DNA from: Pseudidiomarina andamanensis
GTDB lineage: Bacteria > Pseudomonadota > Gammaproteobacteria > Enterobacterales > Alteromonadaceae
Direction of reading: 5' to 3'
Length of the DNA: 32,000 nt
NCBI RefSeq assembly: GCF_009734345.1
Contig: NZ_CP032551.1
Coordinates: forward strand, 1,230,001-1,262,000
Below, in pieces: positions 3,206 to 31,939 of the stretch (its first letter is position 1; each line of letters opens with the position of its first letter). Below the pieces are notes generated by a model that saw nothing but the letters and a program-made list of their open reading frames with translations, searched no databases and was not told the DNA's origin. Both the position numbers and the translations under genes were made by a program.

Positions 3206-4792
3206 TTAGTCTTGTTCTGCAGCAGTTAACGCAGCTTCAACCCACTGATACCATTCAGAAGAAGTGTCTGTGCTTGAAACCGCACCTACGTAGTCAACCG
3301 CTTCAAAGAAGCTGTTACCTAAACCACTCAGGTCGTTCGCAGTCACTGTGATATCAGCTGATGACATGTCAGTTGCGAAACCGTCTGAGCCAAATACTGT
3401 TGCGTTACCGCCAAGGCGCGCGTTCACACCACCGTTGTCGAACCATTCTTGACGGCTAGTACCGTCACTGAATAATGCTGCTGACGTGAATTCGTTTTCA
3501 GCAACACAAGCCATCGCTGAGTTGAAGAAGTTCAAATCACCAGCAGTAACACCTAACTCGCCATCACCAGTAAACAAGATGCAGCGGGTATCGTTGGTCG
3601 CAACGTCAGTTTTCACCAATAAGAAGTTATAAAGCTGACCTTGGAAGTTGTCGTCAAACTTCATTGCAGTTGATGGATCGTTGTCACGCGTTGATAAACC
3701 GTCAGTGGTGACAACAGTCACGTTGGCAATGTTTGGACGTGAGGTTGGAGCTTGTGAGTATTCAGCGCCTGAGTTTTTCTCACCGTCAGCTTCGAAGCCG
3801 CCGTTACCCATGAATACGTCAGTTCCGTCAACGTTGACAGTACCGTGTTTAATGTACAAGAACTGTGCATTACCTTGCCAGCCAGCATCGATATCCATTG
3901 AGTCATCTTGGGTGTCAGTGAATACAACGCGTTTCAGGTTTGCTGCGCCACCGAAGAACTCGATACCGTCATCGTAACCTTGGTGAATGTGGATGTACTC
4001 GTAAGAAGAGCCTGAACCTACAGCGTTCAAGGTTAATGAGTTCAAGTCATCACCATCGCCGCCAGCACGTGGGCCTGAACCTGCGTACCAGATTTTTGCA
4101 TAGGCCATAGAGCCGCTGTCATCAGCGTTATCATTACCGCCGTAGTAGCTTACGATACCTTCAGATGCCACGTTACAAGTGCCAGCATCACGCTGTGCAT
4201 CAGTACATTGGTTGGTAATACCTTCACCGTTGATAATAATACCGCCCCAATCCGCAAAACGCGGGCCGTTACCAACCACGTCAAAGCGTGTAAACGCATT
4301 TGCAGAGGTGAAAGTTACCGGCTTATCGAACGTACCAATTGCATTTAATTTTGCGCCTCGAGCAACACGAATGATGGCTTCACCGCTAGTGAATGCCAAC
4401 GTTGCACCTGGCTCAACAGTCATTACTGGGCCATCTTGGTTGATAGTGCATGAGGTGGTGGTGTCACAATCTTCACCAATCAATAATGCGCCATCAAATA
4501 CGTGTACACCACCATCTGGCAATTCAGCGAAGGTAATATCTTCGGTAATTTCAATGTTACGGCTCGCAAACTCAAGGTTGTATTCGCAATCGCGACCATC
4601 AAATGCACCTTGAACACCGTTATAAGTTGCACAAAGGTTATCGTTGCCAGTGCCACCGGTATCGCCACCTGAGCCATTATTCACGACGCTGTTGTCATTC
4701 ACTGTTGGGGTAATTTCGATATCGCCACCACAACCGGCCAATGCCAATGCTGAAGCAACCGCGGTAACTTGGAAAAGAGTTTGCAATTTCAT
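3206..4792 (-). CDS. surface/periplasmic lipoprotein of unknown function, Gly/Asp-rich and possibly a parallel beta-helix, co-transcribed with the TonB receptor
   Basis: Lipobox LALAGC at residues 17-21 and AGGAGA upstream of the ATG. It lies 77 bp upstream of the receptor on the same strand. Repetitive G/D/N-rich segments (GGIIINGEG, DDGIEFFGG, QDDSMDIDAG) suggest a beta-helix, but the fold is only inferred. Confidence 0.7.
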   Translation of the reverse strand: MKLQTLFQVTAVASALALAGCGGDIEITPTVNDNSVVNNGSGGDTGGTGNDNLCATYNGVQGAFDGRDCEYNLEFASRNIEITEDITFAELPDGGVHVFDGALLIGEDCDTTTSCTINQDGPVMTVEPGATLAFTSGEAIIRVARGAKLNAIGTFDKPVTFTSANAFTRFDVVGNGPRFADWGGIIINGEGITNQCTDAQRDAGTCNVASEGIVSYYGGNDNADDSGSMAYAKIWYAGSGPRAGGDGDDLNSLTLNAVGSGSSYEYIHIHQGYDDGIEFFGGAANLKRVVFTDTQDDSMDIDAGWQGNAQFLYIKHGTVNVDGTDVFMGNGGFEADGEKNSGAEYSQAPTSRPNIANVTVVTTDGLSTRDNDPSTAMKFDDNFQGQLYNFLLVKTDVATNDTRCILFTGDGELGVTAGDLNFFNSAMACVAENEFTSAALFSDGTSRQEWFDNGGVNARLGGNATVFGSDGFATDMSSADITVTANDLSGLGNSFFEAVDYVGAVSSTDTSSEWYQWVEAALTAAEQD

Positions 4793-4855
4793 TGTGTTCT
4801 CCTGGAAAGGAACGAATGTAAGTAATTAAACGACGCAGGCAGATTAGTGAGATGG

Positions 4856-4889
4856 CATGACAAATTTGTGACAAATTCGTTTTGTCATG
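4856..4889. promoter_or_regulatory. candidate operator upstream of the lipoprotein/TonB-receptor operon
   Basis: A perfect 9-bp inverted repeat, CATGACAAA (4856-4864) / TTTGTCATG (4881-4889), enclosing a third TGACAAA copy (4868-4874). It lies 65-95 nt upstream of the ATG at 4792. Confidence 0.35.
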
Positions 4890-5028
4890 AAAGATTCATT
4901 GAACCGAAACAGAACTGTCACGGTAAAAATAAAGAAAGAAACACAATGTTTTGTTTAAGAATGTGGAGCACCAACACCGCGAGTGCTACATTGATAACGA
5001 GCAGTAAATAAAATGAGGTAATTATAAC

Positions 5029-6309
5029 GTGCGCTATTTCATTGCTATTGCGGTTGCCATATTGGCCCTGTTGCTGTGGTTTGCACCGGCCGATTCTCAA
5101 ATACGCCTCATTACGTTAAGCAAATCTGATCTTGGATGGACAGTCACGTACCAGCTAAACGAGCCGGTAACGCAATTAGAATTTGTACGCTCACCCAATG
5201 AATCACGCGCTGCTCGCTGGCAACCATTAACCGAGAATATCGAAATTGCTTGGCGTAACGGCTCTGAAGTTATCCGTAGTAAAAATGGCGAAGCGTTTTC
5301 AGAAGCTGCCTTCATTCTTGATGCAACCTACACCACCCTACCCAAAGATTATGCGCCGTTTTCACCCTTTAGTGACGGTGGCATGCTCATTCATACTGCA
5401 CGCTTTTTTGCATGCGCCGACCAGTGTGGTGCAGCCCATCATGAATGGCCGATGGCGGTCAGCTTGACCACAAATGACTATATGTTGGTTGATGGCCAAT
5501 TACGGCTTGGTTTCCATGAGTGGCTCGATAGAGACAGCGGCCGTGCCATTTATATTGGCTCACAACCTCCGGAAACCTTTTCCGCACTGGTTGCGATTAT
5601 CGATCCTGCACTGCCATCTTCATTGCGTCAGGATATGATCACCGAGTTACCGATGATCATGAGTTACTACACCAAACAACTGGGTGCGCTTTCGCAAACG
5701 CCAACCTTGTTCGCCTCATACAGTGATTTTCAGGGAGATTATTACGGGCACCAAGGCGGTGTTCTGCCGCATCAGGTATTTATGCATTGGTATGGCGAGC
5801 AAGCCCTGAAAAACGTTGATGAGCAGAATACGCTTTGGTTCTTTGCCCACGAGATTGCACATTTGTTTCAAGGTGCAGGGTTAAAATACTCAAGCTCAGA
5901 TGAAGCCTGGATTCATGAAGGCGCTGCTGAATTAATGTCGTACCTCTATACCGATACGAAGCTAGCGAAAAGCAATCAACTCGTCCAAGATGCCGTGCGC
6001 AAAGCACAAACCGAATGCGTTGCGTCATGGCCGGCAAGCGAACCTTTTATTAATGTCGGTCGCGTAAACTTTAGAGCACACTACAGCTGTGGCTTGGTCG
6101 CCAACGCTGATCTTCATGCGCAATTACAAGCCAATGGTGTTGGAGCTGGTATTTTTGCACTGTGGGAAACCTACTCAACCATGGTAAGCGACGGTGCGCC
6201 GGCTAACTCCGAGACTTATTTTGCCGCTTTCGAGCAGCTAACGGGTTACGCCTCAATGTCGCTTCGACAATTGATTGATCGGCCAGTATCTGCTTCTATA
6301 GCTCCCTAA
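5029..6309 (+). CDS. secreted or membrane-anchored gluzincin-type zinc metallopeptidase (HExxH-x18-E)
   Basis: GTG start with a hydrophobic N-terminus (MRYFIAIAVAILALLLWFAPADSQ). HEIAHLFQGAGLKYSSSDEAWIHEGAAE matches the M1/MA-clan spacing HExxH + 18 residues + E. Confidence 0.6.
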   Translation: MRYFIAIAVAILALLLWFAPADSQIRLITLSKSDLGWTVTYQLNEPVTQLEFVRSPNESRAARWQPLTENIEIAWRNGSEVIRSKNGEAFSEAAFILDATYTTLPKDYAPFSPFSDGGMLIHTARFFACADQCGAAHHEWPMAVSLTTNDYMLVDGQLRLGFHEWLDRDSGRAIYIGSQPPETFSALVAIIDPALPSSLRQDMITELPMIMSYYTKQLGALSQTPTLFASYSDFQGDYYGHQGGVLPHQVFMHWYGEQALKNVDEQNTLWFFAHEIAHLFQGAGLKYSSSDEAWIHEGAAELMSYLYTDTKLAKSNQLVQDAVRKAQTECVASWPASEPFINVGRVNFRAHYSCGLVANADLHAQLQANGVGAGIFALWETYSTMVSDGAPANSETYFAAFEQLTGYASMSLRQLIDRPVSASIAP

Positions 6310-7176: not shown

Positions 7177-7348
7177 AAATTTCATTCAAAACACCTTAAG
7201 TCACGCCCTGCTTCGCTAAATAGAACCGTTTAACTTTATTCTATATTCACAAGGTGAATGCCTGTAATGCACTTCATTCATTTGTTGTATTCAATCAATT
7301 CAGTCTAGCCTAGAGTTCGTTAACACACGAACAACAACTGGGTAAATT

Positions 7349-8926
7349 ATGAACGGACTAAAACTCCCAAAACTTGAGCAACCTGTAGCAGGTTTAATTG
7401 ATCAAAATTGCCAACAATTTTTGCTCGACTTGGTACGAAACTTCCGCCCGAAGCTTCAGCGGCTATTAGCCAATCGTCAGCAACGGCAACAGCAAATAGA
7501 CAATGGTGCGTTACCGGATTTTGCTCCAGAAACAAAATCGATTCGTGCCGGCGAATGGCGCGTCGCAAGGCTTCCGAAGGATTTAACCAAACGTCGTTTG
7601 GAAATTACTGGCCCGGTTGACCGCAAGATGGTGATCAATGCGCTTAATGCGAATGTTGATTGCTACATGGCTGACTTTGAAGATTCTCAGTCGCCAACAT
7701 GGGAAGGCGTCATTCAAGGCCAGATCAATTTGTTCGATGCCAATACTGGAAAAATGACGTACACCGACCCTACATCGAATAAGCGTTATCAACTCAATGA
7801 AAACCCTGCCCTTTTGATTGCTCGTGTTCGCGGTCTGCACCTGCCTGAGAAGCACGTTGAAATTGATAACGAGGTGATTCCGGGTTGCTTATTTGATTTT
7901 GCGCTTTATTTCTATCTTAACTATCAGCAACGTGTCGCTCGTGGCACCGGCGTCTATTACTACCTACCGAAACTCGAGCACAGCAGCGAAGCACAATGGT
8001 GGGCTGACGTCTTTACCTTCACCGAAGACTACTTTCAGCAATCACGCGGCACCATTCGTGCAACGGTGTTAATAGAAACCCTACCCGCCGTGTTCCAAAT
8101 GGACGAGATTTTATACGCCATGCGTGAGCACATTGTGGCGCTAAACTGTGGCCGCTGGGATTACATTTTTAGCTACATCAAAACGTTGAAAAACCATCCT
8201 GATCGGGTGCTTCCTGACCGACAGGTCGTCACCATGAACCAGCCATTCTTAAATGCCTATTCTCGGTTGTTAGTGAAAACCTGTCATAAGCGCGGCGCGC
8301 TAGCGATGGGTGGTATGGCTGCGTTTATCCCGAGCAAAGATCCAGCCGAAAACGCCACCATTCTCGCCAAAGTTAAAGCGGACAAAGAACTCGAACGCAA
8401 CAATGGTCACGACGGTACCTGGATTGCGCATCCGGGGCTTGCCGACACCGTCCGCGAGGTATTCGTTGCTGGGCTTGATGGGGATAACCAATTACATGTA
8501 TTGCGCGAAAACGATGCGCCAATAGTCGCTGCCGATCTGCTCGAACCGAGCTCCGGCGAACGTACTGAAGCGGGCATGCGCACCAATATTCGTGTGGCAC
8601 TGCAGTACATTGCCGCTTGGATATCGGGGAAAGGCTGTGTGCCCATTTACGGTCTTATGGAAGACGCCGCCACCGCCGAAATTTCACGCACCTCCATTTG
8701 GCAGTGGATTAAACACGGTAAAACCCTCGATAACGGCGAGGTCGTGACCAAAGATTTATTCCGAAATTACCTGCAACAAGAGGCTAGCGTGGTTCGTAAC
8801 GAAGTAGGCGAGCAACGCTGGGAAGCCGAGAATTTTCCTAAAGCCATGCGGTTGCTAGAAGACATCACCACCGCTGATGACCTGGTCGAGTTTCTTACCC
8901 TGCCAGGCTACGAACTTATTCAATAA
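7349..8926 (+). CDS. aceB: malate synthase A
   Basis: 525 aa. Family landmarks include LEITGP, DFEDS, YYYLPKLE, LNCGRWDYIFS, MGGMAAFIP and DGTWIAHPGL. Confidence 0.95.
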   Translation: MNGLKLPKLEQPVAGLIDQNCQQFLLDLVRNFRPKLQRLLANRQQRQQQIDNGALPDFAPETKSIRAGEWRVARLPKDLTKRRLEITGPVDRKMVINALNANVDCYMADFEDSQSPTWEGVIQGQINLFDANTGKMTYTDPTSNKRYQLNENPALLIARVRGLHLPEKHVEIDNEVIPGCLFDFALYFYLNYQQRVARGTGVYYYLPKLEHSSEAQWWADVFTFTEDYFQQSRGTIRATVLIETLPAVFQMDEILYAMREHIVALNCGRWDYIFSYIKTLKNHPDRVLPDRQVVTMNQPFLNAYSRLLVKTCHKRGALAMGGMAAFIPSKDPAENATILAKVKADKELERNNGHDGTWIAHPGLADTVREVFVAGLDGDNQLHVLRENDAPIVAADLLEPSSGERTEAGMRTNIRVALQYIAAWISGKGCVPIYGLMEDAATAEISRTSIWQWIKHGKTLDNGEVVTKDLFRNYLQQEASVVRNEVGEQRWEAENFPKAMRLLEDITTADDLVEFLTLPGYELIQ

Positions 8927-23875: not shown

Positions 23876-25825
23876 CTACTTGGTCGCTTGACGCTGCTTG
23901 AGAAAGAACACGCTAAACACAATCAGCACAAGCAATTGCGCACCAAGACTCTCCCACGTGGCTGCCATACCGAGCCAGTCGATATTTGACGGAACCGGGA
24001 ATGGGGTTGCGTTTATCCAGCCGGCCTCTTGGAATGCGATCATTGCTTTACCGGCTAACACGAACGCAAGTATCAGCAGCAAGTACGTGGTGTAAGCAAA
24101 AAACTTGGCAATTGGCAGTTTCACGCTAAAGCGTAAGATACCCCACGTGATCATTGCCAATACCACGGCGGCTGCGATAAATCCGCCCCAAACGCTGGTG
24201 TGCTGCGCGCTTTGCGCTTGAGTCAGCAATGACTGATAGAACAGCACGGTTTCAAACACTTCGCGGTACACGGCAATAAAGCTCAACAGCGCAATACCCC
24301 ACAGCGTACCTGCCGCTAAATGAGCATTCAGATTTTGCTTGATGTATTGCTGCCAAGCCTGTGCATTGGTTTTGCTGTGCATCCAAATACCGACATACAC
24401 CAATACCACTGCGGCAAGACCCGCAGCCACACCTTCCATAATCTCGCGACTCGCACCACTAATCGAAATCAGCGACTGCGCCGCCCACCACGTCAAACCG
24501 CCGAGCACAAGCGCAGCAAGCCAGCCCGAATGAACATATTTCACGGCATCGTTTCGTTCAGTGCGACGTAGCACGGTAATCAGCGCCAGCACCACCAACA
24601 GCGCTTCCAAACCTTCACGTAGCAAAATCACAAAACTTGCTGTGGCTAATGCCGTATTTGAAAGCTGTTGCTCATTCATGGTGTCTTGAGCACGTTCCAG
24701 AGCCGCTAAGATGTCACTAATCGCGGCGCTCACTTGTGCTTGCTGATCAGGCGTTGCGATAATGCGGCGCAAGTTCATCATTTGCGCTTCAATGGCTTTG
24801 GTTTGAGCTGCATCGTAGGCACTCAAACCATTCTCTATTAACTCAAAGCCATCTAAGTAAGCACTGACTGCGAGGTGGTTCGCACGCTTTAAGTCACCTG
24901 CTTTGTAGGCTTCTTCCGCCGCTTGTAAGCGCGCTTTTGCCACCGCGAATGGTGATATTTCAGCTTGAAAAAGTTGCTGTGGGTTCGCCCGTAAAATATT
25001 GACCAAATTCGCTTGAGAACTCGGTAGCTCAGCGCGTAATTGGGCTGGGCTCGTATTCACCATTTGCTGTAAATCAATCACATCCATGCTTGCCTGTCGC
25101 GCAACCTCAGTGCCATGTTGAAACGCGAGAGAGCCCACATAAAATGCCAGCGACCAACGCTGCTGCTCGGTCAGGTTGGTAAACGCCATCATGGCGGTGT
25201 CGTCAATGCCCTTCGTAATGGCATCGTATAGACCAAGCAACGAGCGATTTTCAGCGCGCTCTAAATCAGTAAAGTTAGTTGGGGCAGGTTCTAGGTTTTG
25301 CCCTGCTGGACCATCACCCTGACCTTGCTGACCATGACATGCACTACATTGCGCTTGATATATTTCTTTAGTTTGTGCGGTTGGCAACAATACTTCGGGG
25401 AGTTCGACTTTCGGTAATTGCTGCAAGATTTGTGCGCGCAATTGTGAGGTTGCACCGCGCACTTCAGCCAAATTCGCTTTACTCATGATTAATTCGCGTA
25501 GCTGTTGCGCCGGCTGGATTAACGTTTGTAGTGCTGGATTGTCAGTTGCTAGCGTGTTGATATTGCGCAGAATAATTGCCGAAAACTCTTCCATTTCGGC
25601 ATATTCGCCAGCGTTAACCACCTCACCGTTGGCGACCGCCTCGCTGTAATCCACCCCAATGTATTCCACCAACTGCGCAATTTGGCGCATGTATTCTTGT
25701 TGGAGTTCTGGTTGATTGGCTGTTTGATTCGCTAGGGACTGGGCTTGCGTCTGCGGGCTCAATACTGCCAACGTGGCAAAAACAACAACCGCCAACGCGG
25801 CACGAGTAATGGCTTGAAGCGTCAT
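23876..25825 (-). CDS. cytochrome c domain fused to an FTR1-family high-affinity iron permease
   Basis: Signal peptide, a CSACHG heme-c motif, then a polytopic C-terminal half with two RExxE motifs (REGLEAL, REVFETV). Confidence 0.85.
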   Translation of the reverse strand: MTLQAITRAALAVVVFATLAVLSPQTQAQSLANQTANQPELQQEYMRQIAQLVEYIGVDYSEAVANGEVVNAGEYAEMEEFSAIILRNINTLATDNPALQTLIQPAQQLRELIMSKANLAEVRGATSQLRAQILQQLPKVELPEVLLPTAQTKEIYQAQCSACHGQQGQGDGPAGQNLEPAPTNFTDLERAENRSLLGLYDAITKGIDDTAMMAFTNLTEQQRWSLAFYVGSLAFQHGTEVARQASMDVIDLQQMVNTSPAQLRAELPSSQANLVNILRANPQQLFQAEISPFAVAKARLQAAEEAYKAGDLKRANHLAVSAYLDGFELIENGLSAYDAAQTKAIEAQMMNLRRIIATPDQQAQVSAAISDILAALERAQDTMNEQQLSNTALATASFVILLREGLEALLVVLALITVLRRTERNDAVKYVHSGWLAALVLGGLTWWAAQSLISISGASREIMEGVAAGLAAVVLVYVGIWMHSKTNAQAWQQYIKQNLNAHLAAGTLWGIALLSFIAVYREVFETVLFYQSLLTQAQSAQHTSVWGGFIAAAVVLAMITWGILRFSVKLPIAKFFAYTTYLLLILAFVLAGKAMIAFQEAGWINATPFPVPSNIDWLGMAATWESLGAQLLVLIVFSVFFLKQRQATK

Positions 25826-25944: not shown

Positions 25945-26013
25945 TTCCTACATGCGATTTAAAGACCACGCTGCCATCGTTTTGGGTAAATACCTTTAAA
26001 TATGATGTTAATA
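25945..26013 (-). repeat. candidate terminal attC site (69 nt) with a degenerate R' box
   Basis: Geometry is 7-5-8...8-5-7. The plus strand reads TTCCTAC ATGCG ATTTAAAG ... CTTTAAAT ATGAT GTTAATA. The L-box pairing is a perfect 8 bp, but R' reads GTA rather than GTT on the cassette strand. Confidence 0.3.
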
Positions 26014-26135
26014 AGTTCCTTCTTATTGAGGTGCCCTTTTCTGAACTTAATGCCAAAGAAAATGAAAGAAGATAACGCACAAAACGCGTATAGCAATAAG
26101 CAAAGAACTAAAAAACACAGCACTTCCTGAATTTT

Positions 26136-26618
26136 TTATTTGCTATAAACCGTTTTCGGCTTACCTAATCCCGCCCACAATTCAGTCAGAACCGATTGCC
26201 AAACTACTTTTTCTTCTGAACCGACCGAGAGCATTTCTGTTTCAAACTGGTCGAGGTCTATAAACGTCGAACAGCCGCCTGTTGCGTGGAGTCCATCTTT
26301 AGATACGTGCGAAAACACGATAAATCTATTACCAATAGTTGGGGCTGTTGTACCACAAGAATTCTTTTCAGTATCTGTTTTAATATATACGAAGTCAGTT
26401 ACGGCTTTATCTTTCCATACTTCTATGACTTGCATTTTTGTTTTGTAAAATGAAGTATCCCAATCTCCCGGAATTATCTCTGTATCGATAGCGATACCCG
26501 TGAAAATTGCGTCATGCTCCTGGATTACTTCTTCGAAAGTCTTTGCTTCACTGAAACAAGAGCATCCGAATGCAGTTATTGGGGAAAGCATCAGAGTAAA
26601 TAACATAACCCTTAACAT
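26136..26618 (-). CDS. secreted TIMP/NTR-like (OB-fold) protein, candidate metalloprotease inhibitor
   Basis: ATG 26618 has AAGGAG 9 nt upstream. After the signal peptide MLRVMLFTLMLSPITAFG the mature N-terminus is CSC. There are exactly four Cys, placed as in the TIMP N-domain (C1, C3, ..NSCG.., ..GGCS..). FVYIKT...SCG...FIVF...DGLHATGGCSTF parallels TIMP-1 FVYTP..SVCG..FLIAG..DGLLHITTCSF. Confidence 0.6.
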   Translation of the reverse strand: MLRVMLFTLMLSPITAFGCSCFSEAKTFEEVIQEHDAIFTGIAIDTEIIPGDWDTSFYKTKMQVIEVWKDKAVTDFVYIKTDTEKNSCGTTAPTIGNRFIVFSHVSKDGLHATGGCSTFIDLDQFETEMLSVGSEEKVVWQSVLTELWAGLGKPKTVYSK

Positions 26619-26742
26619 GAACCAGACTCCTTCAAACGATGATGTCCAGTTACTTATATCAGCGGTCATACTTCCACACCATCAAAAAATTGCGTAGCTT
26701 CTGCCTCAAAGGTATTCATGTATTTTTTGATTTAGGCTGCAA

Positions 26743-26810
26743 CGTTAACGTTAAACCGAGTGCTGATGCGACCTTCGCGATGGTTGAAGAGTATGGTTAG
26801 TTGGTTAAAG
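26743..26810 (-). repeat. candidate attC site (68 nt)
   Basis: The plus strand reads CGTTAAC GTTA AACC ... ATGCGA cct TCGC[G]AT ... GGTT AGTTG GTTAAAG. R boxes are 6/7 complementary, the L pairing is 4 bp, and an inner 6-bp stem has a bulged G on the expected arm. Confidence 0.35.
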
Positions 26811-26846
26811 ATGATTACGGAAATTGGTGCAGGATAAAAACTTAAT

Positions 26847-26974
26847 ATTTAACTTGGAAGACGCTTTGTCCGCTGTGTGCCAGGAGCGGACGTTGACGCT
26901 GAAATAAGCGGCGGCCCGACAAGGGCGTCCGGTGGAGGCCGCCGGCCGGAACGAACTTAATTGACTGGTTAACT
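26847..26974 (-). repeat. long irregular attC-like element with a GC-rich core; 3' boundary uncertain (26835-26853)
   Basis: The R'' box AGTTAAC (plus gttaact, 26968-26974) is 7/7 complementary to the 5' junction of the SRPBCC cassette and overlaps its stop codon. A GTTAAAT core site lies at 26847-26853. The interior holds several alternative GC-rich stems. Confidence 0.4.
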
Positions 26975-27427
26975 GGCGCTGCTACCATAATAAGACCTTA
27001 GCACCTGATGACGGTGCTTAAAGATGAACCGGTAAACAGGTGCCAGAACATATGCCAACACGGGCAACCTACACTGAAATTCGACGGTATCGGTGACCCG
27101 GCATGATGTCCCGTTTCTACTAATGTCCCGTCGATGGTGCCAGAGCCTATTGGTTAAAGAGCTCGACGCCTCCGCAAAACCACTTTGGCGATCAATGGAT
27201 TGAAAGAAGAACGTGTGCCGATCAATGGGAAAAATGCCGAAAAGGAGTATCCAGCTAGAGAAGAGCACGTTACCCGTAGGCCATTCAAAGATTGGCTTGC
27301 TTGACCATTCTGAGGGAACCGTCATGCGGATGAAAGGGTTCAACTCCGTATTCACGCCCTTCATGGTGAGCAATCCATCGATATCTTCCGGACTGATTTT
27401 AAGGTTACTCGATACTTCAAATTTCAC
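26969..27427 (-). CDS. SRPBCC (START/cyclase-dehydrase-like) ligand-binding family protein
   Basis: GTG start with GGAAGG 5 nt upstream. The C-terminal pattern ...RLWHHRRDI..NGTSCRVTDTVEF......VYRFIFKHRHQVL resembles the SRPBCC W-H-H ... D-V-Y/F ... F-x-R-R pattern. Confidence 0.5.
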   Translation of the reverse strand: MKFEVSSNLKISPEDIDGLLTMKGVNTELNPFIRMTVPSEWSSKPIFEWPTGNVLFSSWILLFGIFPIDRHTFFFQSIDRQSGFAEASSSLTNRLWHHRRDISRNGTSCRVTDTVEFQCRLPVLAYVLAPVYRFIFKHRHQVLRSYYGSSAS

Positions 27428-27443
27428 TGGTGCCTTCCGTGAC

Positions 27444-27513
27444 AGTTAACGTAGAAGTCACCGGCGCTGCGCAGCTTTATCGCGCAGCGTCCGAGTGGAC
27501 TGCCGGGTTAGAA
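27444..27513 (-). repeat. integron attC recombination site (70 nt), canonical architecture
   Basis: The plus strand (the predicted bottom strand) reads AGTTAAC GTAGA AGTCACCGGCGCTGCGC agctttatc GCGCAGCG[T]CCG[A]GT[G]GACT GCCGG GTTAGAA. It has 7-nt R boxes, 5+5 nt of unpaired spacer, and a 17-bp stem with single-base bulges T, A and G, all on the 3' arm. Confidence 0.7.
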
Positions 27514-27537
27514 GTGCTCGGAAAAACTCAACCGCCA

Positions 27538-27930
27538 CTATATTGAACACTTATTTCTTGCCTTCTTGTATTTGCCAAATTTCTCGACTCCTTTCTCAAG
27601 GGTTCGCTCCGCAGTGTATTCTCTGTCACCCATGAATTCGAGAAACCCTTTGATCGTCATTTCCATCGACTCACCCAGGTTTGCCTTGGCTTCTTCTAGG
27701 CATTTGCCTACGACAACCTCATCAAGATCACGTTTTATTGACTGTAAATTTGCAACTTGGGAACTTAGTGCAACTCGGGCAGTTGCTCCAGCAAGTTGGG
27801 TGCCATCAAGCCAACGCTGTTCAATCTTCTTGATTTCAGTCATCCCTTTATCTTTTGGCTCAATCAGTTTTTCGCATCCGACTAAGGCAATTGTAATAAA
27901 GGGAATCGCCAACGCTGTTTTGTATTTCAT
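27538..27930 (-). CDS. small lipoprotein of unknown function (130 aa)
   Basis: Lipobox IALVGC at residues 14-19. GGGAGA lies 5 nt upstream of the ATG. The mature part is predicted helical, and no family was recognised. Confidence 0.7.
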   Translation of the reverse strand: MKYKTALAIPFITIALVGCEKLIEPKDKGMTEIKKIEQRWLDGTQLAGATARVALSSQVANLQSIKRDLDEVVVGKCLEEAKANLGESMEMTIKGFLEFMGDREYTAERTLEKGVEKFGKYKKARNKCSI

Positions 27931-27964
27931 GAAATCTCCCTGTGGTGAAAATTAAGCACAGAAC

Positions 27965-28148
27965 TTCTAACATTTATATATTGTGCGTGCGCACTTCGGA
28001 ACTAGTTTAATTGATAGCTTTAGGTTCTTAAGTTACTGATTAAGCGGGCCTTACCACCTTTAAGAGCTCCGAGTTAGCAATGGCAATTTGAGCATACTCA
28101 GTTACACTCTACCGAGCGCACAATATCTGACCTTTATTTTTTGTTATG
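27965..28148 (-). repeat. 184-bp imperfect palindrome, either an oversized attC-like site or a MITE-like element
   Basis: ATATTGTGCG (27979-27988) pairs with CGCACAATAT (28117-28126), and interrupted complementarity continues inward for about 45 nt per arm. The flanks are TTCTAAC (27965-27971) and GTTATGT (28142-28148). Confidence 0.3.
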
Positions 28149-28347
28149 TCATTGACAGTATACGACTTAAATACACAACACAACAACAAAACGTGCAATA
28201 TCGCCGAAGTGAATGTGCCGTGTATGGCTAGCGACATCCACATTTACTAATAACGCGACGGCTAGTCACCAACTGGATTAGGCAGAAGGTCCGCTCCTCG
28301 CTCAAAGCGGAAGCAATCCCAAGAACTTGGTCATATTTGAATCTCTT

Positions 28348-28599
28348 TTAGCAGGCAGCGTTCCGCTGATTCTTCTGCTCTAAACTCAGCCGTTCTGCCA
28401 ACCAAACTTTAATGAGTGATTGCCGCGTCACGCCAATACGAGCAGCTTCTTGATCTAAAGACTCGACAATCCACAGTGGAAAATCGACATTAATTCGCTT
28501 AGATTCCTGATTTACTCGCCGTGCCGTTGAGAGATCGAGATCGTCAATAATATCTTCCTTATTGGCATCAAATTTTTCTTCAAATTTCTTGGTTTTCAT
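28348..28599 (-). CDS. brnA: BrnA-family antitoxin (ribbon-helix-helix/CopG-like)
   Basis: KRINVDFPLWIVESLDQEAARIGVTRQSLIKVWLAERL is typical of BrnA. ATG 28599 has AAGAGG upstream, and the gene overlaps the end of brnT by 20 nt. Confidence 0.8.
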   Translation of the reverse strand: MKTKKFEEKFDANKEDIIDDLDLSTARRVNQESKRINVDFPLWIVESLDQEAARIGVTRQSLIKVWLAERLSLEQKNQRNAAC

Positions 28600-28876
28600 A
28601 AAGCTCAACCTCTTTCTTTCGTGAGCGTCTCACCGAAATAATGCGGATTTTCTCGCCGCGAAACGTAATGATTGCTGACCAATGCTTTCTTCCAATCATG
28701 CCGATGACTATGTATCGCAATTCTTCAGTGTATTTTGTCTTTATTTCTAATAGGTTAGGGTCATCCCAAAGTTTCTGGCCACATTCGAAATCAATGCCAT
28801 GCTTTAATAAATTCGACAAACTTTTTTCGCGATCATAGTCGAAACTATGAGTATAATGTATTCCTTTTTTACTCAC
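28580..28876 (-). CDS. brnT: BrnT-family (DUF497) ribonuclease toxin
   Basis: FDYDREKSLSNLLKHGIDFECGQKLWDDPN...YIVIG......IRIISVRRSRKKEVELYE matches the BrnT pattern. GTG start with AAGGAG 9 nt upstream. Confidence 0.8.
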   Translation of the reverse strand: MSKKGIHYTHSFDYDREKSLSNLLKHGIDFECGQKLWDDPNLLEIKTKYTEELRYIVIGMIGRKHWSAIITFRGEKIRIISVRRSRKKEVELYENQEI

Positions 28877-28921
28877 TTCGCAAATCTCCTTATTTGCTGA
28901 CGTGAGAACATTAGCATTGGT

Positions 28922-28941
28922 TTTGAGTGCATTAGCTCAAA
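28922..28941. promoter_or_regulatory. inverted repeat upstream of brnT, candidate BrnA operator
   Basis: TTTGAG-N8-CTCAAA lies 46-65 nt upstream of the brnT start. RHH antitoxins typically autoregulate through such repeats. Confidence 0.3.
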
Positions 28942-29003
28942 GCTATAATTGCTCCCAGCTCTCTAAGATTTCTCTGTTTCAAAAATACGACTTTTCAACG
29001 CTC

Positions 29004-29033
29004 ATAAAAAAGGCGAGCTAAAAAGCTCGCCTT
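29004..29033 (-). terminator. rho-independent terminator of gcvP
   Basis: The minus strand reads AGGCGAGCT-TTTT-AGCTCGCCT followed by TTTTTT. It lies 21 nt downstream of the gcvP stop at 29054. Confidence 0.8.
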
Positions 29034-29053: not shown

Positions 29054-31939
29054 TTAACGATAAGTATCAACCGCCGGGCAACTACACATCAAATTCCGGT
29101 CGCCATACACGTCGTCAATGCGGTTCACGCTTGGCCAGAACTTGTTCGCCTTAACGGCAGCTACAGGGTATGCAGCAAGTTCGCGGCTATATGGGCGTTC
29201 CCAGTTCGCATCAACAATGTCTGCCAACGTGTGTGGTGCGTTGTGCAGTGGGTTGTTGTCTTCTGGCCACTCGCCGGCTTCAACGCGTTTCGCTTCTTCA
29301 CGAATGTTGATCATGGCTTCAATGAAGCGGTCTAGCTCAGCTTTCGATTCAGACTCGGTTGGCTCAACCATTAATGTGCCCGCTACTGGGAAGCTCATGG
29401 TTGGGCTGTGGAAGCCGTAGTCTTGCAAGCGTTTTGCCACGTCCATCTCGGTCACGCCACAAGCGTCTTTTAATGGGCGCAAGTCGATAATACATTCGTG
29501 CGCAACGCGGTCGTTACGGCCTTTGTACAGAATTGGGTAGTGCTTGCTTAAGTGCTTCGCAATGTAGTTGGCGTTCATAATAGCCACTTCCGTTGCTTCG
29601 CGCAGGCCACGTGAACCCATCATCACAATGTACATCCACGAAATTGGCAAAATGCTCGCGCTACCAAATGGTGCTGCAGATACCGCGCCGTTTTCAGCAT
29701 CGGTGTCCGCAATTTTCACCACACTGTGGTTCGGTAAGAATGGTGCTAAGTGCTTCTTCACGCCAATTGGGCCCATACCAGGACCACCACCGCCGTGCGG
29801 AATACAGAAGGTTTTGTGCAAGTTTAAGTGCGATACGTCGGCACCAATGTAACCTGGTGAGGTGACGCCCACTTGCGCGTTCATATTGGCACCATCAAGG
29901 TAAACCTGACCACCGTGCGCGTGCACAATGTCACAGATGTCTTTAATGCCTTCTTCGTAAACGCCGTGCGTTGACGGGTAAGTCACCATAATGCATGACA
30001 AGTTGTCGCCTGCTTCTTCAGCTTTCGCTTTCAAGTCAGCCAAATCAACGTTACCGTTCTTGTCACAGTCAACCACTACCACGTTCATGCTCATCATTTG
30101 CGCTGAAGCTGGGTTGGTACCGTGTGCTGAGCTTGGAATTAAGCAGATGTTGCGATGCGCATCGCCACGGCTTTGGTGATATTTCTGAATGGCTAACAAG
30201 CCAGCGTATTCGCCTTGTGCACCTGAGTTTGGTTGCATCGACATCACGTCGTAGCCAGTGATATCCACTAACCACTCAGACAACGTGCTGAGCAATTCAG
30301 CGTACCCTTGCGCTTGGTCTGCTGGGCAGAACGGATGCAACTGACCGAATTCCGGCCAAGTGACTGGAATCATTTCAGCGGTGGCGTTGAGCTTCATGGT
30401 ACATGAGCCCAACGAGATCATGCTGTGGTTCAATGACAAGTCTTTGTTTTCAAGCTGCTTGATGTAACGCAGCATTTCGGTTTCAGAGTGGTAGCTGTTG
30501 AATACTGGGTGTTCCAAAATCGCGCTTTCACGGCGAAGTGCTGCCGGAATTGATTCAATTTCACCAGAAGCCACACGTGAATCTAACACGTCAATTTCTA
30601 AACCGTGATCAGCACCGAATAACGCTGCGAACAAGGCGTCAACGTCTTGGCGGGTTTTCGCTTCATCTAAGCTCACGCCGAACTGGCCGTTGCCGTCAAC
30701 GCGCAAGTTAATTTCAGCTTTGTCTGCGCGCGCTAATACGTCAGATGCGTCGCCTTCAAGTTTGAAGGTTAAGGTATCGAACCAATGGTTGTTCAATACT
30801 TTCACGCCCTTCTCTTTTAAGCCAAGCGCGACGATGTCGGTCAAACGGTTAATGCGTGATGCGATGGTTTTCAGGCCTTGTGGGCCGTGGTAGACCGCGT
30901 AGAACGATGCCATGTTGGCAAGCAATACCTGCGCAGTACAGATGTTTGAGTTCGCTTTCTCACGACGGATGTGCTGTTCACGAGTCTGCATAGCCATACG
31001 CAATGCTTGGTTGTCACGGCTGTCTTTTGACACACCGATGATACGACCTGGCAGTGAACGCTTGTATTTGTCACGGGTTGCAAAGAATGCAGCATGCGGG
31101 CCGCCGTAACCCATTGGTACGCCGAAACGTTGTGCTGAACCCAGCACCATGTCAGCGCCCATTTCGCCTGGCGATTTCAACAACACAAGGCTCATGATAT
31201 CTGCGGCAACGGCAACAATACCTTTGTTCGCTTGAATATCAGCAATCAGCTTTTCAATGTTGTGTATTTCACCGTTGCGGTCTGGATATTGCAACAACGC
31301 ACCGAATACGTCGTGGTTATCGGCTTCGCGCGCTGGTCCAACAATTACGTCAAAACCAAACTGCTCGGCGCGCGTTTTCACCACATCAATCGTTTGTGGG
31401 AACACGTTGTCAGCAACGTAGTACGTGTTTGATTTGCTCTTGCTCACACGCTTCGACATGGCCATGGCTTCGGCTGCTGCCGTTGCTTCGTCAAGTAATG
31501 ACGCGCTCGCCAGTTCAAGGCCAGTCAAATCCATGGTCATTTGTTGGAAGTTCAAAATGGCTTCTAAACGACCCTGAGCAATTTCTGGCTGGTACGGCGT
31601 GTACGCGGTGTACCAACCTGGGTTCTCAAGTACGTTACGCAAAATAACGTTCGGTACTAGGGTGTCGTAGTAACCCATACCGATAAATGACTTGTACACT
31701 TTGTTCTTGCTCGCGATACCTTTGAGTTTGGCAAGCGCTTCACGCTCGTTCATTGGTTCGCCAACAGACAAAAATGGGTCGCGACGAATCGCGCCAGGAA
31801 CGGTGTCACGCGTTAGCACTTCGAGTGAGCTAACACCCAACTCAGCCAACATCGCCTTGGTTTCATCAGCACTTGGGCCAATGTGGCGGGCAATGAATTC
31901 ACCGTGATTTTCTAACTGCTTCAGCGTAGTAGTCGTCAT
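29054..31939 (-). CDS. gcvP: glycine dehydrogenase (decarboxylating), glycine cleavage system P protein
   Basis: A 961-aa single-chain P protein. It has the PLP-lysine region [18 protein letters not shown] and an N-terminal [14 protein letters not shown]. Confidence 0.95.

Follow-up and report, generated by a model that had tools for sequence, protein, structure and literature searches.

Described attC sites, the recombination sites of integron gene cassettes, are 57–141 bp long, have spacers of 5–6 nt and carry the extrahelical bases G16, A20 and T24 (PMC5027507). The rule given for these bases confines them to the bottom strand's R''/L'' arm, with a G at position 16, an optional base at position 20 and a distal T at position 23 or 24 (PMC5027507). 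The pattern G16, A20, T24 was assigned to attC_oxa2 by Nivina et al. (PMC5027507), who also reported that IntI1 requires a 6-bp stem separating the first bulge from the last, and that the recombination frequency of attC_oxa2 with IntI1 is about 4x10^-1 for the bottom strand and five to six orders of magnitude lower for the top strand (PMC5027507). At the level of whole loci, a cluster comprising two or more attC sites within 4 kb, with no integron integrase nearby, is termed a CALIN (Cury et al., 2016; PMC4889954). Mobile integron arrays are known to contain sites that derive from attI and lie apart from intI (PMC12901181).

The window analysed here is a stretch of 32,000 nucleotides from the chromosome of Pseudidiomarina andamanensis. 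The sequence at 27444–27513 of this window is a genuine, canonical integron attC, with the plus strand as its recombinogenic bottom strand. It is read as the attC of a 521-bp lipoprotein cassette, the first of two cassettes in an integrase-less chromosomal array of P. andamanensis, and the probability of this reading is put at roughly 93%. The features of the locus are as follows.

25954–29005, no strand: variable island between gcvP (29054–31939) and an FTR1/cytochrome c permease gene (23876–25825)
26868–26890, minus: hairpin TCCGCTCCTGGCACACAGCGGAC, directly after the last R' box
26891–26974, minus: attC of cassette 2, 84 nt, homologous to attCs of a Providencia IncC array and of Salinivibrio
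26897–27449, minus: gene cassette 2, starting TTAACT; its ORF (26969–27427) encodes 152 aa and is of unknown function
27444–27513, minus: attC of cassette 1, with the minus strand as its top (cassette-sense) strand and the plus strand as its bottom strand
27450–27970, minus: gene cassette 1, of 521 bp, which begins TTAGAA and ends with the G of its own R' box
27538–27930, minus: ORF of cassette 1, encoding a predicted lipoprotein of 130 aa with a signal peptide ending LVGC
27965–27971, minus: junction box GTTAGAA, made up of the G of the upstream attI-like site and the first six bases of cassette 1
27971–28311, minus: ORF-less element of about 340–345 nt, heading the array, parts of which are homologous to an intI-attI intergenic region
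28348–28608, minus: CopG/BrnA-like antitoxin gene, upstream of the element
28580–28876, minus: BrnT toxin gene, upstream of the element

Anatomy and identity of the attC site

Read along the plus strand, the site consists of an R' box AGTTAAC (27444–27450), a spacer GTAGA (27451–27455), a 17-bp stem formed by 27456–27472 with 27482–27501 and closed by a 9-nt terminal loop AGCTTTATC (27473–27481), a second spacer GCCGG (27502–27506) on the R'' side and an R'' box GTTAGAA (27507–27513). The stem is broken by three single-base bulges only (T27490, A27494 and G27497/G27498), all on the 3' arm. This 70-nt architecture had been proposed in a first-pass annotation of the sequence, and its R' box, stem, loop and R'' box were reproduced by direct reading and by DNA folding. 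All three of the bulges named there (T27490, A27494, G27497) were found as well; the G bulge is degenerate, as positions 27497 and 27498 are both G, and homology to attC_oxa2 identifies G27498 as the extrahelical base. With the numbering from the 3' end used in PMC5027507, the extrahelical bases become G16 (G27498), A20 (A27494) and T24 (T27490), and a 6-bp stem (3+3 bp) separates the first bulge from the last, which places the site in the three-bulge class.

The top (minus) strand of the site reads TTCTAAC ... GTTAACT and contains both the invariant AAC and the invariant GTT triplet, with the crossover predicted between 27449 and 27450. Each R box is one position off the RYYYAAC/GTTRRRY consensus. 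The length of 70 nt and the two spacers of 5 nt fall inside the described attC range.

DNA folding of the plus strand gave this structure at a dG of -17.3 kcal/mol (z -3.06), with one of 200 shuffled sequences folding as well. Folding of both strands, a check suggested in the first-pass annotation, produced a mirror structure for the minus strand at -17.0 kcal/mol, and the bottom strand is thus favoured by 0.3 kcal/mol only in predicted folding; in attCs it is favoured on average by about 2 kcal/mol (PMC5027507). The top-strand skews of the site are both negative (GC -0.12, AT -0.03), and negative skews have been reported for attC top strands (PMC5027507). Two strands that fold about equally well are compatible with a chance-like intergenic hairpin, e.g., a terminator or a REP-like repeat, and the site does follow closely on the end of an ORF, an expected place for a terminator. 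However, no T-run follows the stem and a terminator scan had no match there, and this explanation becomes highly improbable in the light of the geometry, the covariance score and the sequence relatives of the site.

The geometry was searched for with a strict template (NNNNAAC, a spacer of 5–6 nt, a bulged stem, a second spacer of 5–6 nt, GTTNNNN), in which the stem comprises 3 bp, a bulge, either 3 bp-bulge-3 bp or 6 bp, a further bulge and at least 3 bp, and every bulge is required to be on the R'' arm. A general dynamic-programming score for hairpins had proved too noisy, with many false pairs within genes, and was replaced by such fixed templates. The template recovered known attCs (aadA1, catB3, aac(6')-IIa, arr-3, GES, oxa2 and others) at 0–1 mismatch, and the known resistance-cassette attCs passed it in the cassette sense only. 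Across 1,092,820 control strand-bases of unrelated genomic DNA no site was found at 0 mismatches, which argues against an ordinary hairpin, and a single one at no more than one mismatch. In the window, 27444–27513 was the sole match, at 0 mismatches and with the minus strand as top strand only.

A covariance model was built from 27 attC bottom strands of mobile integrons and marine arrays, leaving out the oxa2 family and the window. It matched 27444–27513 on the plus strand over its full length with 35.3 bits and an E-value of about 2e-6. The model is a surrogate for the attC model of IntegronFinder and its E-values are rough; the test is also not fully independent of the template test, because the training sites were picked with the template. 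This was the one significant match in the window. The highest control score (517,560 bases) was 12.7 bits, which argues against an ordinary hairpin; in the covariance check that the first-pass annotation had called for, the site thus scores above noise with the surrogate model. The two R46 copies of attC_oxa2 scored 33.0 and 30.7 bits. Rfam had no match in the region at the gathering threshold or at E<=1, so that no Rfam attC family could be used; elsewhere in the window, the Rfam search returned a tRNA gene (204–276, 69.7 bits) unrelated to the attC.

When the cassette was compared with the PLSDB plasmids by blastn, the last ~64 nt alone were matched, in 81 records and at 90–95% identity. Among the records listed, all matches but one were to the 3' end of blaOXA-2 or blaOXA-21, and the identity to attC_blaOXA-2/21 of class 1 integrons was about 92–94% over 63–64 nt, again hardly to be expected of an ordinary hairpin. 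In R46, with the array order intI1, blaOXA-2, aadA1, blaOXA-2, orfD, qacEdelta1, the matching stretch is flanked by blaOXA-2 and aadA1. The Thauera plasmid pTha01 supplies a third member of this attC family, situated behind an HNH endonuclease gene in a cassette array.

The attC call is thus supported by the geometry filter, the covariance model and the identity to attC_blaOXA-2/21. The assignment of the plus strand as bottom strand, as originally proposed, is supported by the position of all bulges on the R''/L'' arm and by the fit of the bottom-strand model to the plus strand, and the filter likewise accepted only the minus strand as top. The cassette ORF that this orientation places on the minus strand is found there.

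Mobility of the lipoprotein cassette and state of the array

The R'' box was examined for its partner. TTCTAAC at 27965–27971 is the exact reverse complement of GTTAGAA at 27507–27513 (7/7), and the R' box present in the array pairs with R'' at 4/7 only, which verifies the counts given in the first-pass annotation. TTCTAAC occurs three times on both strands of the window, two of these occurrences being the R'' box and the junction. Once reconstituted in circular form, the attC folds at -20.4 kcal/mol and has an R box of 7 bp. The further suggestion that the partner of R'' is the beginning of its own cassette is correct and is confirmed by the relatives of the cassette: the homology to contigs L011–14 and L006–10 starts at GTTAGAAGT.

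The 130-aa lipoprotein has no Pfam family. Seven homologues were found, the 100% match being named Pseudidiomarina andamanensis; exact-sequence look-ups of the window protein returned no matches. Wastewater metagenome contigs (L011–14) hold a copy of cassette 1 that is identical at 501 of 528 positions (~95%). In these contigs the cassette is preceded by another attC, ending GTTAGAA; after it come G/TTAGAT and a stretch that matches the R46 3'-CS and the start of qacEdelta1 at 100% identity. As the 3'-conserved segment comes directly after it, the copy is the last cassette of class 1 integrons. The upstream cassette in L011 (913–1638), which carries an attC of its own, codes for a protein of 241 aa containing a Y2_Tnp domain (IS91-like transposase).

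Homology to L011–14 ends at both predicted G/TT crossover points, and that to L006–10 starts at the 5' crossover point; such breaks, exactly at the crossover points, are not accounted for by an ordinary hairpin. The proteins of L006–10 and L001–5 share 72 and 65% amino acid identity with the window protein and are followed by a DUF6694 gene and a 187-aa ORF, respectively. In all four contexts (the window, L001–5, L006–10 and L011–14) the homology breaks at or beside the R' box, and a different gene follows the lipoprotein cassette in each. The cassette encoding the lipoprotein is therefore mobile. A BrnT pair is likewise present in L006, ahead of the lipoprotein cassette there; homology between the two BrnTA regions was considered and rejected, as DNA alignment of the window with L006 gave none upstream of the junction.

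The recombination mechanism is established for attC_oxa2, and we infer that the window site would follow it. In single-stranded DNA the plus (bottom) strand would fold to the hairpin, and two integron-integrase monomers would bind the paired R'/R'' and L'/L'' boxes. G16, A20 and T24 on the R''/L'' arm would then lead the integrase to accept the bottom strand and to reject the top. The bottom strand would be cut between A27449 and C27450 of the AAC triplet, corresponding to G/TT on the top strand, the cut strand would be exchanged with attI or another attC, and replication would resolve the intermediate. In the circle produced by excision, R'' (TTCTAAC) would match G+TTAGAA with 7/7 pairs, and insertion at attI would place the ORF in the sense orientation. 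No integrase is encoded in the window, and any activity must come in trans, with a Pseudidiomarina-type IntI elsewhere in the genome or an incoming mobile integron as its source. IntI1 has evidently handled cassette 1 in other settings.

The absence of an integrase, which the first-pass annotation had not noticed any more than the atypical nature of the neighbouring sites, holds for several searches. Pfam analysis of the ORFs flanking the array revealed no tyrosine recombinase, and tblastn with IntI1 and a Thauera recombinase found no intI or remnant in the whole 32-kb window or in the corresponding loci of P. tainanensis (L022) and Pseudidiomarina sp. EA13-11 (L023). This result can be taken in favour of a different reading, in which the site is an attC by descent and now an inert relic, with no integrase acting on it and the array a decaying leftover.

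The second cassette can also be taken in favour of an inert relic. Its R'' box AGTTAAC (26968–74) is 7/7 complementary to G plus its own first six bases. The R' box of its attC (26891–26897) is GTCAACG where relatives have GTTAACG, and the invariant GTT is thus mutated. The site scored 10.7 bits, below the noise of the model, with its Salinivibrio homologue at 22.1 bits. Such a point mutation in the crossover triplet should block recombination at this attC, and with the core of the neighbouring attC mutated the array may be decaying. Degraded sites on the same lipoprotein cassette elsewhere point the same way, with ATTAGAG replacing the GTT box in L001–5 and a partly degraded 3' site, shortened to 49 nt, in L006–10. 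On the other hand, all 64 nt of the attC itself are identical between the window and the class 1 copy in L011–14, even though the ORF differs at 23 of 393 positions (370 identical). This conservation, together with the first cassettes and integrases described in the next section, makes an inert relic less likely than not.

The position of the second attC was initially set at 26847–26974, which gave no fold, and was corrected to 26891–26974 by homology to plasmid attCs. Cassette 2 itself shares 75% DNA identity with an unannotated stretch of the Marinobacter shengliensis plasmid pMAD49a (L019 6001–6445), and the homologue begins at the same GTTAACT box. It is located among metal-transporter genes with attC hits nearby (7399–7470, 51 bits), and is close to a truncated tyrosine recombinase gene.

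The array ends in relatives show the same hairpin motif after GTTAACG. A 23-nt hairpin of the form TCCGCT-N10/11-AGCGGAC was observed after the R' box GTTAACG at array ends, with sites in the window (26868–26890 and 28289–28311), in L022 (~7265), in L023 (~7267 and 5737) and in L074, L077, L090, L095 and L108. The attI-like element, too, opens with the TCCGCT...AGCGGAC motif; the hairpin may be the right half of an original attI, or a terminator.

The ORF-less element heading the array

In minus-strand direction the island comprises, one after the other, BrnT/BrnA-like genes, ORF-less element, cassette 1, cassette 2, hairpin and a 177-aa ORF. No attC was found for the BrnT/BrnA-like pair (28348–28876). 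P. tainanensis and Pseudidiomarina sp. EA13-11 share both flanks of the island and have ~5.5 kb of other content between them. The sole island sequence common to the window and these two genomes is 27965–28290, in the region of the element; the element occurs at 5301–5624 in L022 and at 5871–6107 in L023. In L022, an IS110-family transposase gene (4014–5258) ends just upstream of the element. Some IS110/IS1111 relatives target integron sites.

In all three genomes the element ends with ...GCGCACGCACAATA, 2–3 variable bases and AAAT G/TTAG, after which a different cassette begins; the consensus of this end is ...GCGCACGCACAATATA(T/C)AAAT G/TTA. The first cassettes of L022 and L023 carry canonical attCs (7193–7264, 65 bits, and 7195–7266, 40.7 bits, respectively), and each R'' box there is likewise complementary, at 7/7 positions, to G and the opening six bases of its own cassette. 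Three Pseudidiomarina genomes with three different first cassettes at the same junction speak against an inert relic, and since each R'' is fully complementary to its own start they point to recent insertion. A homogeneous family of ~72-nt attCs was observed in these arrays (L022 7193–7264; L023 5666–5736 and 7195–7266; L070, L092, L117 and others), with the pattern xxCTAAC AAGGC GCTGCTGTCGGACAA...GCTGCGCTCCAAA...GAGCGCGGC GTTA. It looks like a host-specific type of the Pseudidiomarina arrays and is distinct from both window attCs.

A metagenome scan with the last 26 nt of the element recovered 57 copies in 54 contigs (L065–L118), largely marine. These copies are followed by many different sequences consisting of a leader, an RBS and a start, the few repeats being overlapping contigs. 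In six contigs (L068, L073, L091, L092, L104 and L107) the core is 29/30 identical and lies beside a bona fide intI, the last 30 nt and a 121-nt block (28084–28204) being situated in the ~300-nt gap between the first cassette and the divergent intI. These integrases share 47–50% identity with IntI1 in all six contigs, and the two full-length copies tested (L092 and L107) matched TIGR02249 with 391–396 bits. The closest named relatives are Pseudidiomarina donghaiensis (79%), Idiomarina and Aliidiomarina, which again disfavours an inert relic. In the four contigs that extend far enough, greB and a Tex-like gene adjoin intI. From its position beside a bona fide intI, the core appears to be the attI of an Idiomarinaceae-type chromosomal integron. 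The upstream region of the P. donghaiensis intI, which lies at a contig end, has no attI core.

The window element itself is not adjacent to intI. Its segments 27967–27996 and 28084–28204 are homologous to the Idiomarinaceae-type intI-attI intergenic region, and we read the element, from this homology, as an orphan copy of an attI region. Of the 61 copies whose downstream sequence is long enough, 50 are followed within 3 kb by a correctly oriented attC and none by a wrongly oriented one; an attC within 150 nt upstream was seen for two of 40 full-length copies only.

Two origins may be considered for such a copy. According to the first, the array is the remnant of a complete integron that stood at this locus and lost its intI by deletion, as opposed to a satellite seeded by a dispersed attI. 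Loss of intI is an accepted origin of CALINs (PMC4889954), the 3' 240 nt of the element are homologous to the intI-attI intergenic region, and the locus is common to three related genomes. However, complete integrons with the same attI core are found at another locus (beside greB and the Tex-like gene), the ~345-nt element has a constant 5' boundary in about 40 copies, with two or three copies on some contigs and one divergent pair, and no fragment of intI was detected beside any full-length copy in the metagenome contigs. A deletion at this locus is accordingly doubtful. The second possibility, which is put forward tentatively and at somewhat less than even odds, is that the element is a dispersed, integrase-less copy of the attI, probably with its promoter, of the Idiomarinaceae chromosomal integron, that it nucleates satellite arrays at secondary chromosomal loci, several such platforms being served by one IntI in trans, and that in the window it captured a cassette with a blaOXA-2-type attC. 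A promoter scan found no minus-strand promoter in the element at the thresholds of the scan.

An inverted repeat, ATATTGTGCGC ... GCGCACAATAT (28040–28135 and 27972–27990), encloses ~150 nt of the element, and short versions in L094 and L108 are without the interior of this repeat. The top strand of the element has four TAAC boxes. With the inverted repeat and these boxes the attI region could fold like a giant attC. The covariance model had no match in the element, and 27965–28150 was rejected as a long attC, there being no significant fold, a candidate R'' located 16 nt from the stem and no model match.

The locus among known integron systems

The attC is nothing new in kind, being a well-formed example of that class of integron recombination sites which is understood best, and as it is very close to a bench-tested site the degree of surprise is low. 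It does link a marine Pseudidiomarina chromosomal array with wastewater class 1 integrons and the clinical blaOXA-2 attC family, and provides a data point for tracing the origins of mobile-integron cassettes and attC families. The context of the element may matter more than the attC. If the attI-like element is a dispersed platform used in trans, the integrons of this bacterial family would be organised as one integrase with many arrays, and, if true, this would also explain at least some integrase-less attC clusters.

The window does not hold a complete integron in the sense of an intI beside attI and an array. As in a CALIN, there are two attCs 470 nt apart, all ORFs run in the same direction and no intI is present in the window. 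The locus differs from a CALIN in that the second attC is below model noise with a mutated core, and in that the array starts with an attI-like element, which is outside the CALIN definition. The first attC is unambiguous, and the second is supported by homology to array attCs of Providencia and Salinivibrio and by cassette logic; given its 10.7 bits and GTC core, a standard tool might call a single attC (SALIN). By the definition of Cury et al. the array may be classed as a small CALIN or, leaving the second site aside, as a SALIN with one attC.

In a literature search, a chromosomal orphan attI heading an array was not found described. The nearest counterpart is the delta-attI-type cassettes (PMC12901181), in which a copy of attI away from intI likewise bounds cassettes in an array. 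In those cassettes the attI copy lies behind a resistance gene, whereas here it forms a unit of ~340 nt that has no ORF and heads arrays lacking an integrase, and the copy is that of a chromosomal Idiomarinaceae-type integron.

The first-pass annotation had likened the site to attC_aadA7 and VCR. The analogy is sound for the general architecture, as attC_aadA7 and VCR2 also have R and L boxes, an unpaired spacer and bulges on the R''/L'' arm with G16 and a distal T. It does not extend further: attC_aadA7 has two extrahelical bases (G16, T23) compared with three here, VCR2 is 133 bp long with its T at position 20, and both are without sequence similarity to the window site. On account of the three-bulge class G16/A20/T24, the closest characterised site is attC_oxa2 and not attC_aadA7.

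The window site was aligned by eye with attC_oxa2 (e.g., In1 of R46). The latter belongs to a beta-lactamase cassette and is found in class 1 integrons, whereas the window site belongs to a lipoprotein ORF and is chromosomal with no integrase nearby. The cassette-specific R'' is GCCCAAC in attC_oxa2 and TTCTAAC in the window site, an A-T pair of attC_oxa2 is replaced by C27459-G27497 (a compensatory change), and two loop bases and one spacer base are changed. The two sites are alike in being 70 nt long with 5-nt spacers and the bulges G16, A20 and T24, in having an almost identical inner stem (CGCTGCGC/GCGCAGCG) and L boxes, and in their covariance-model scores.
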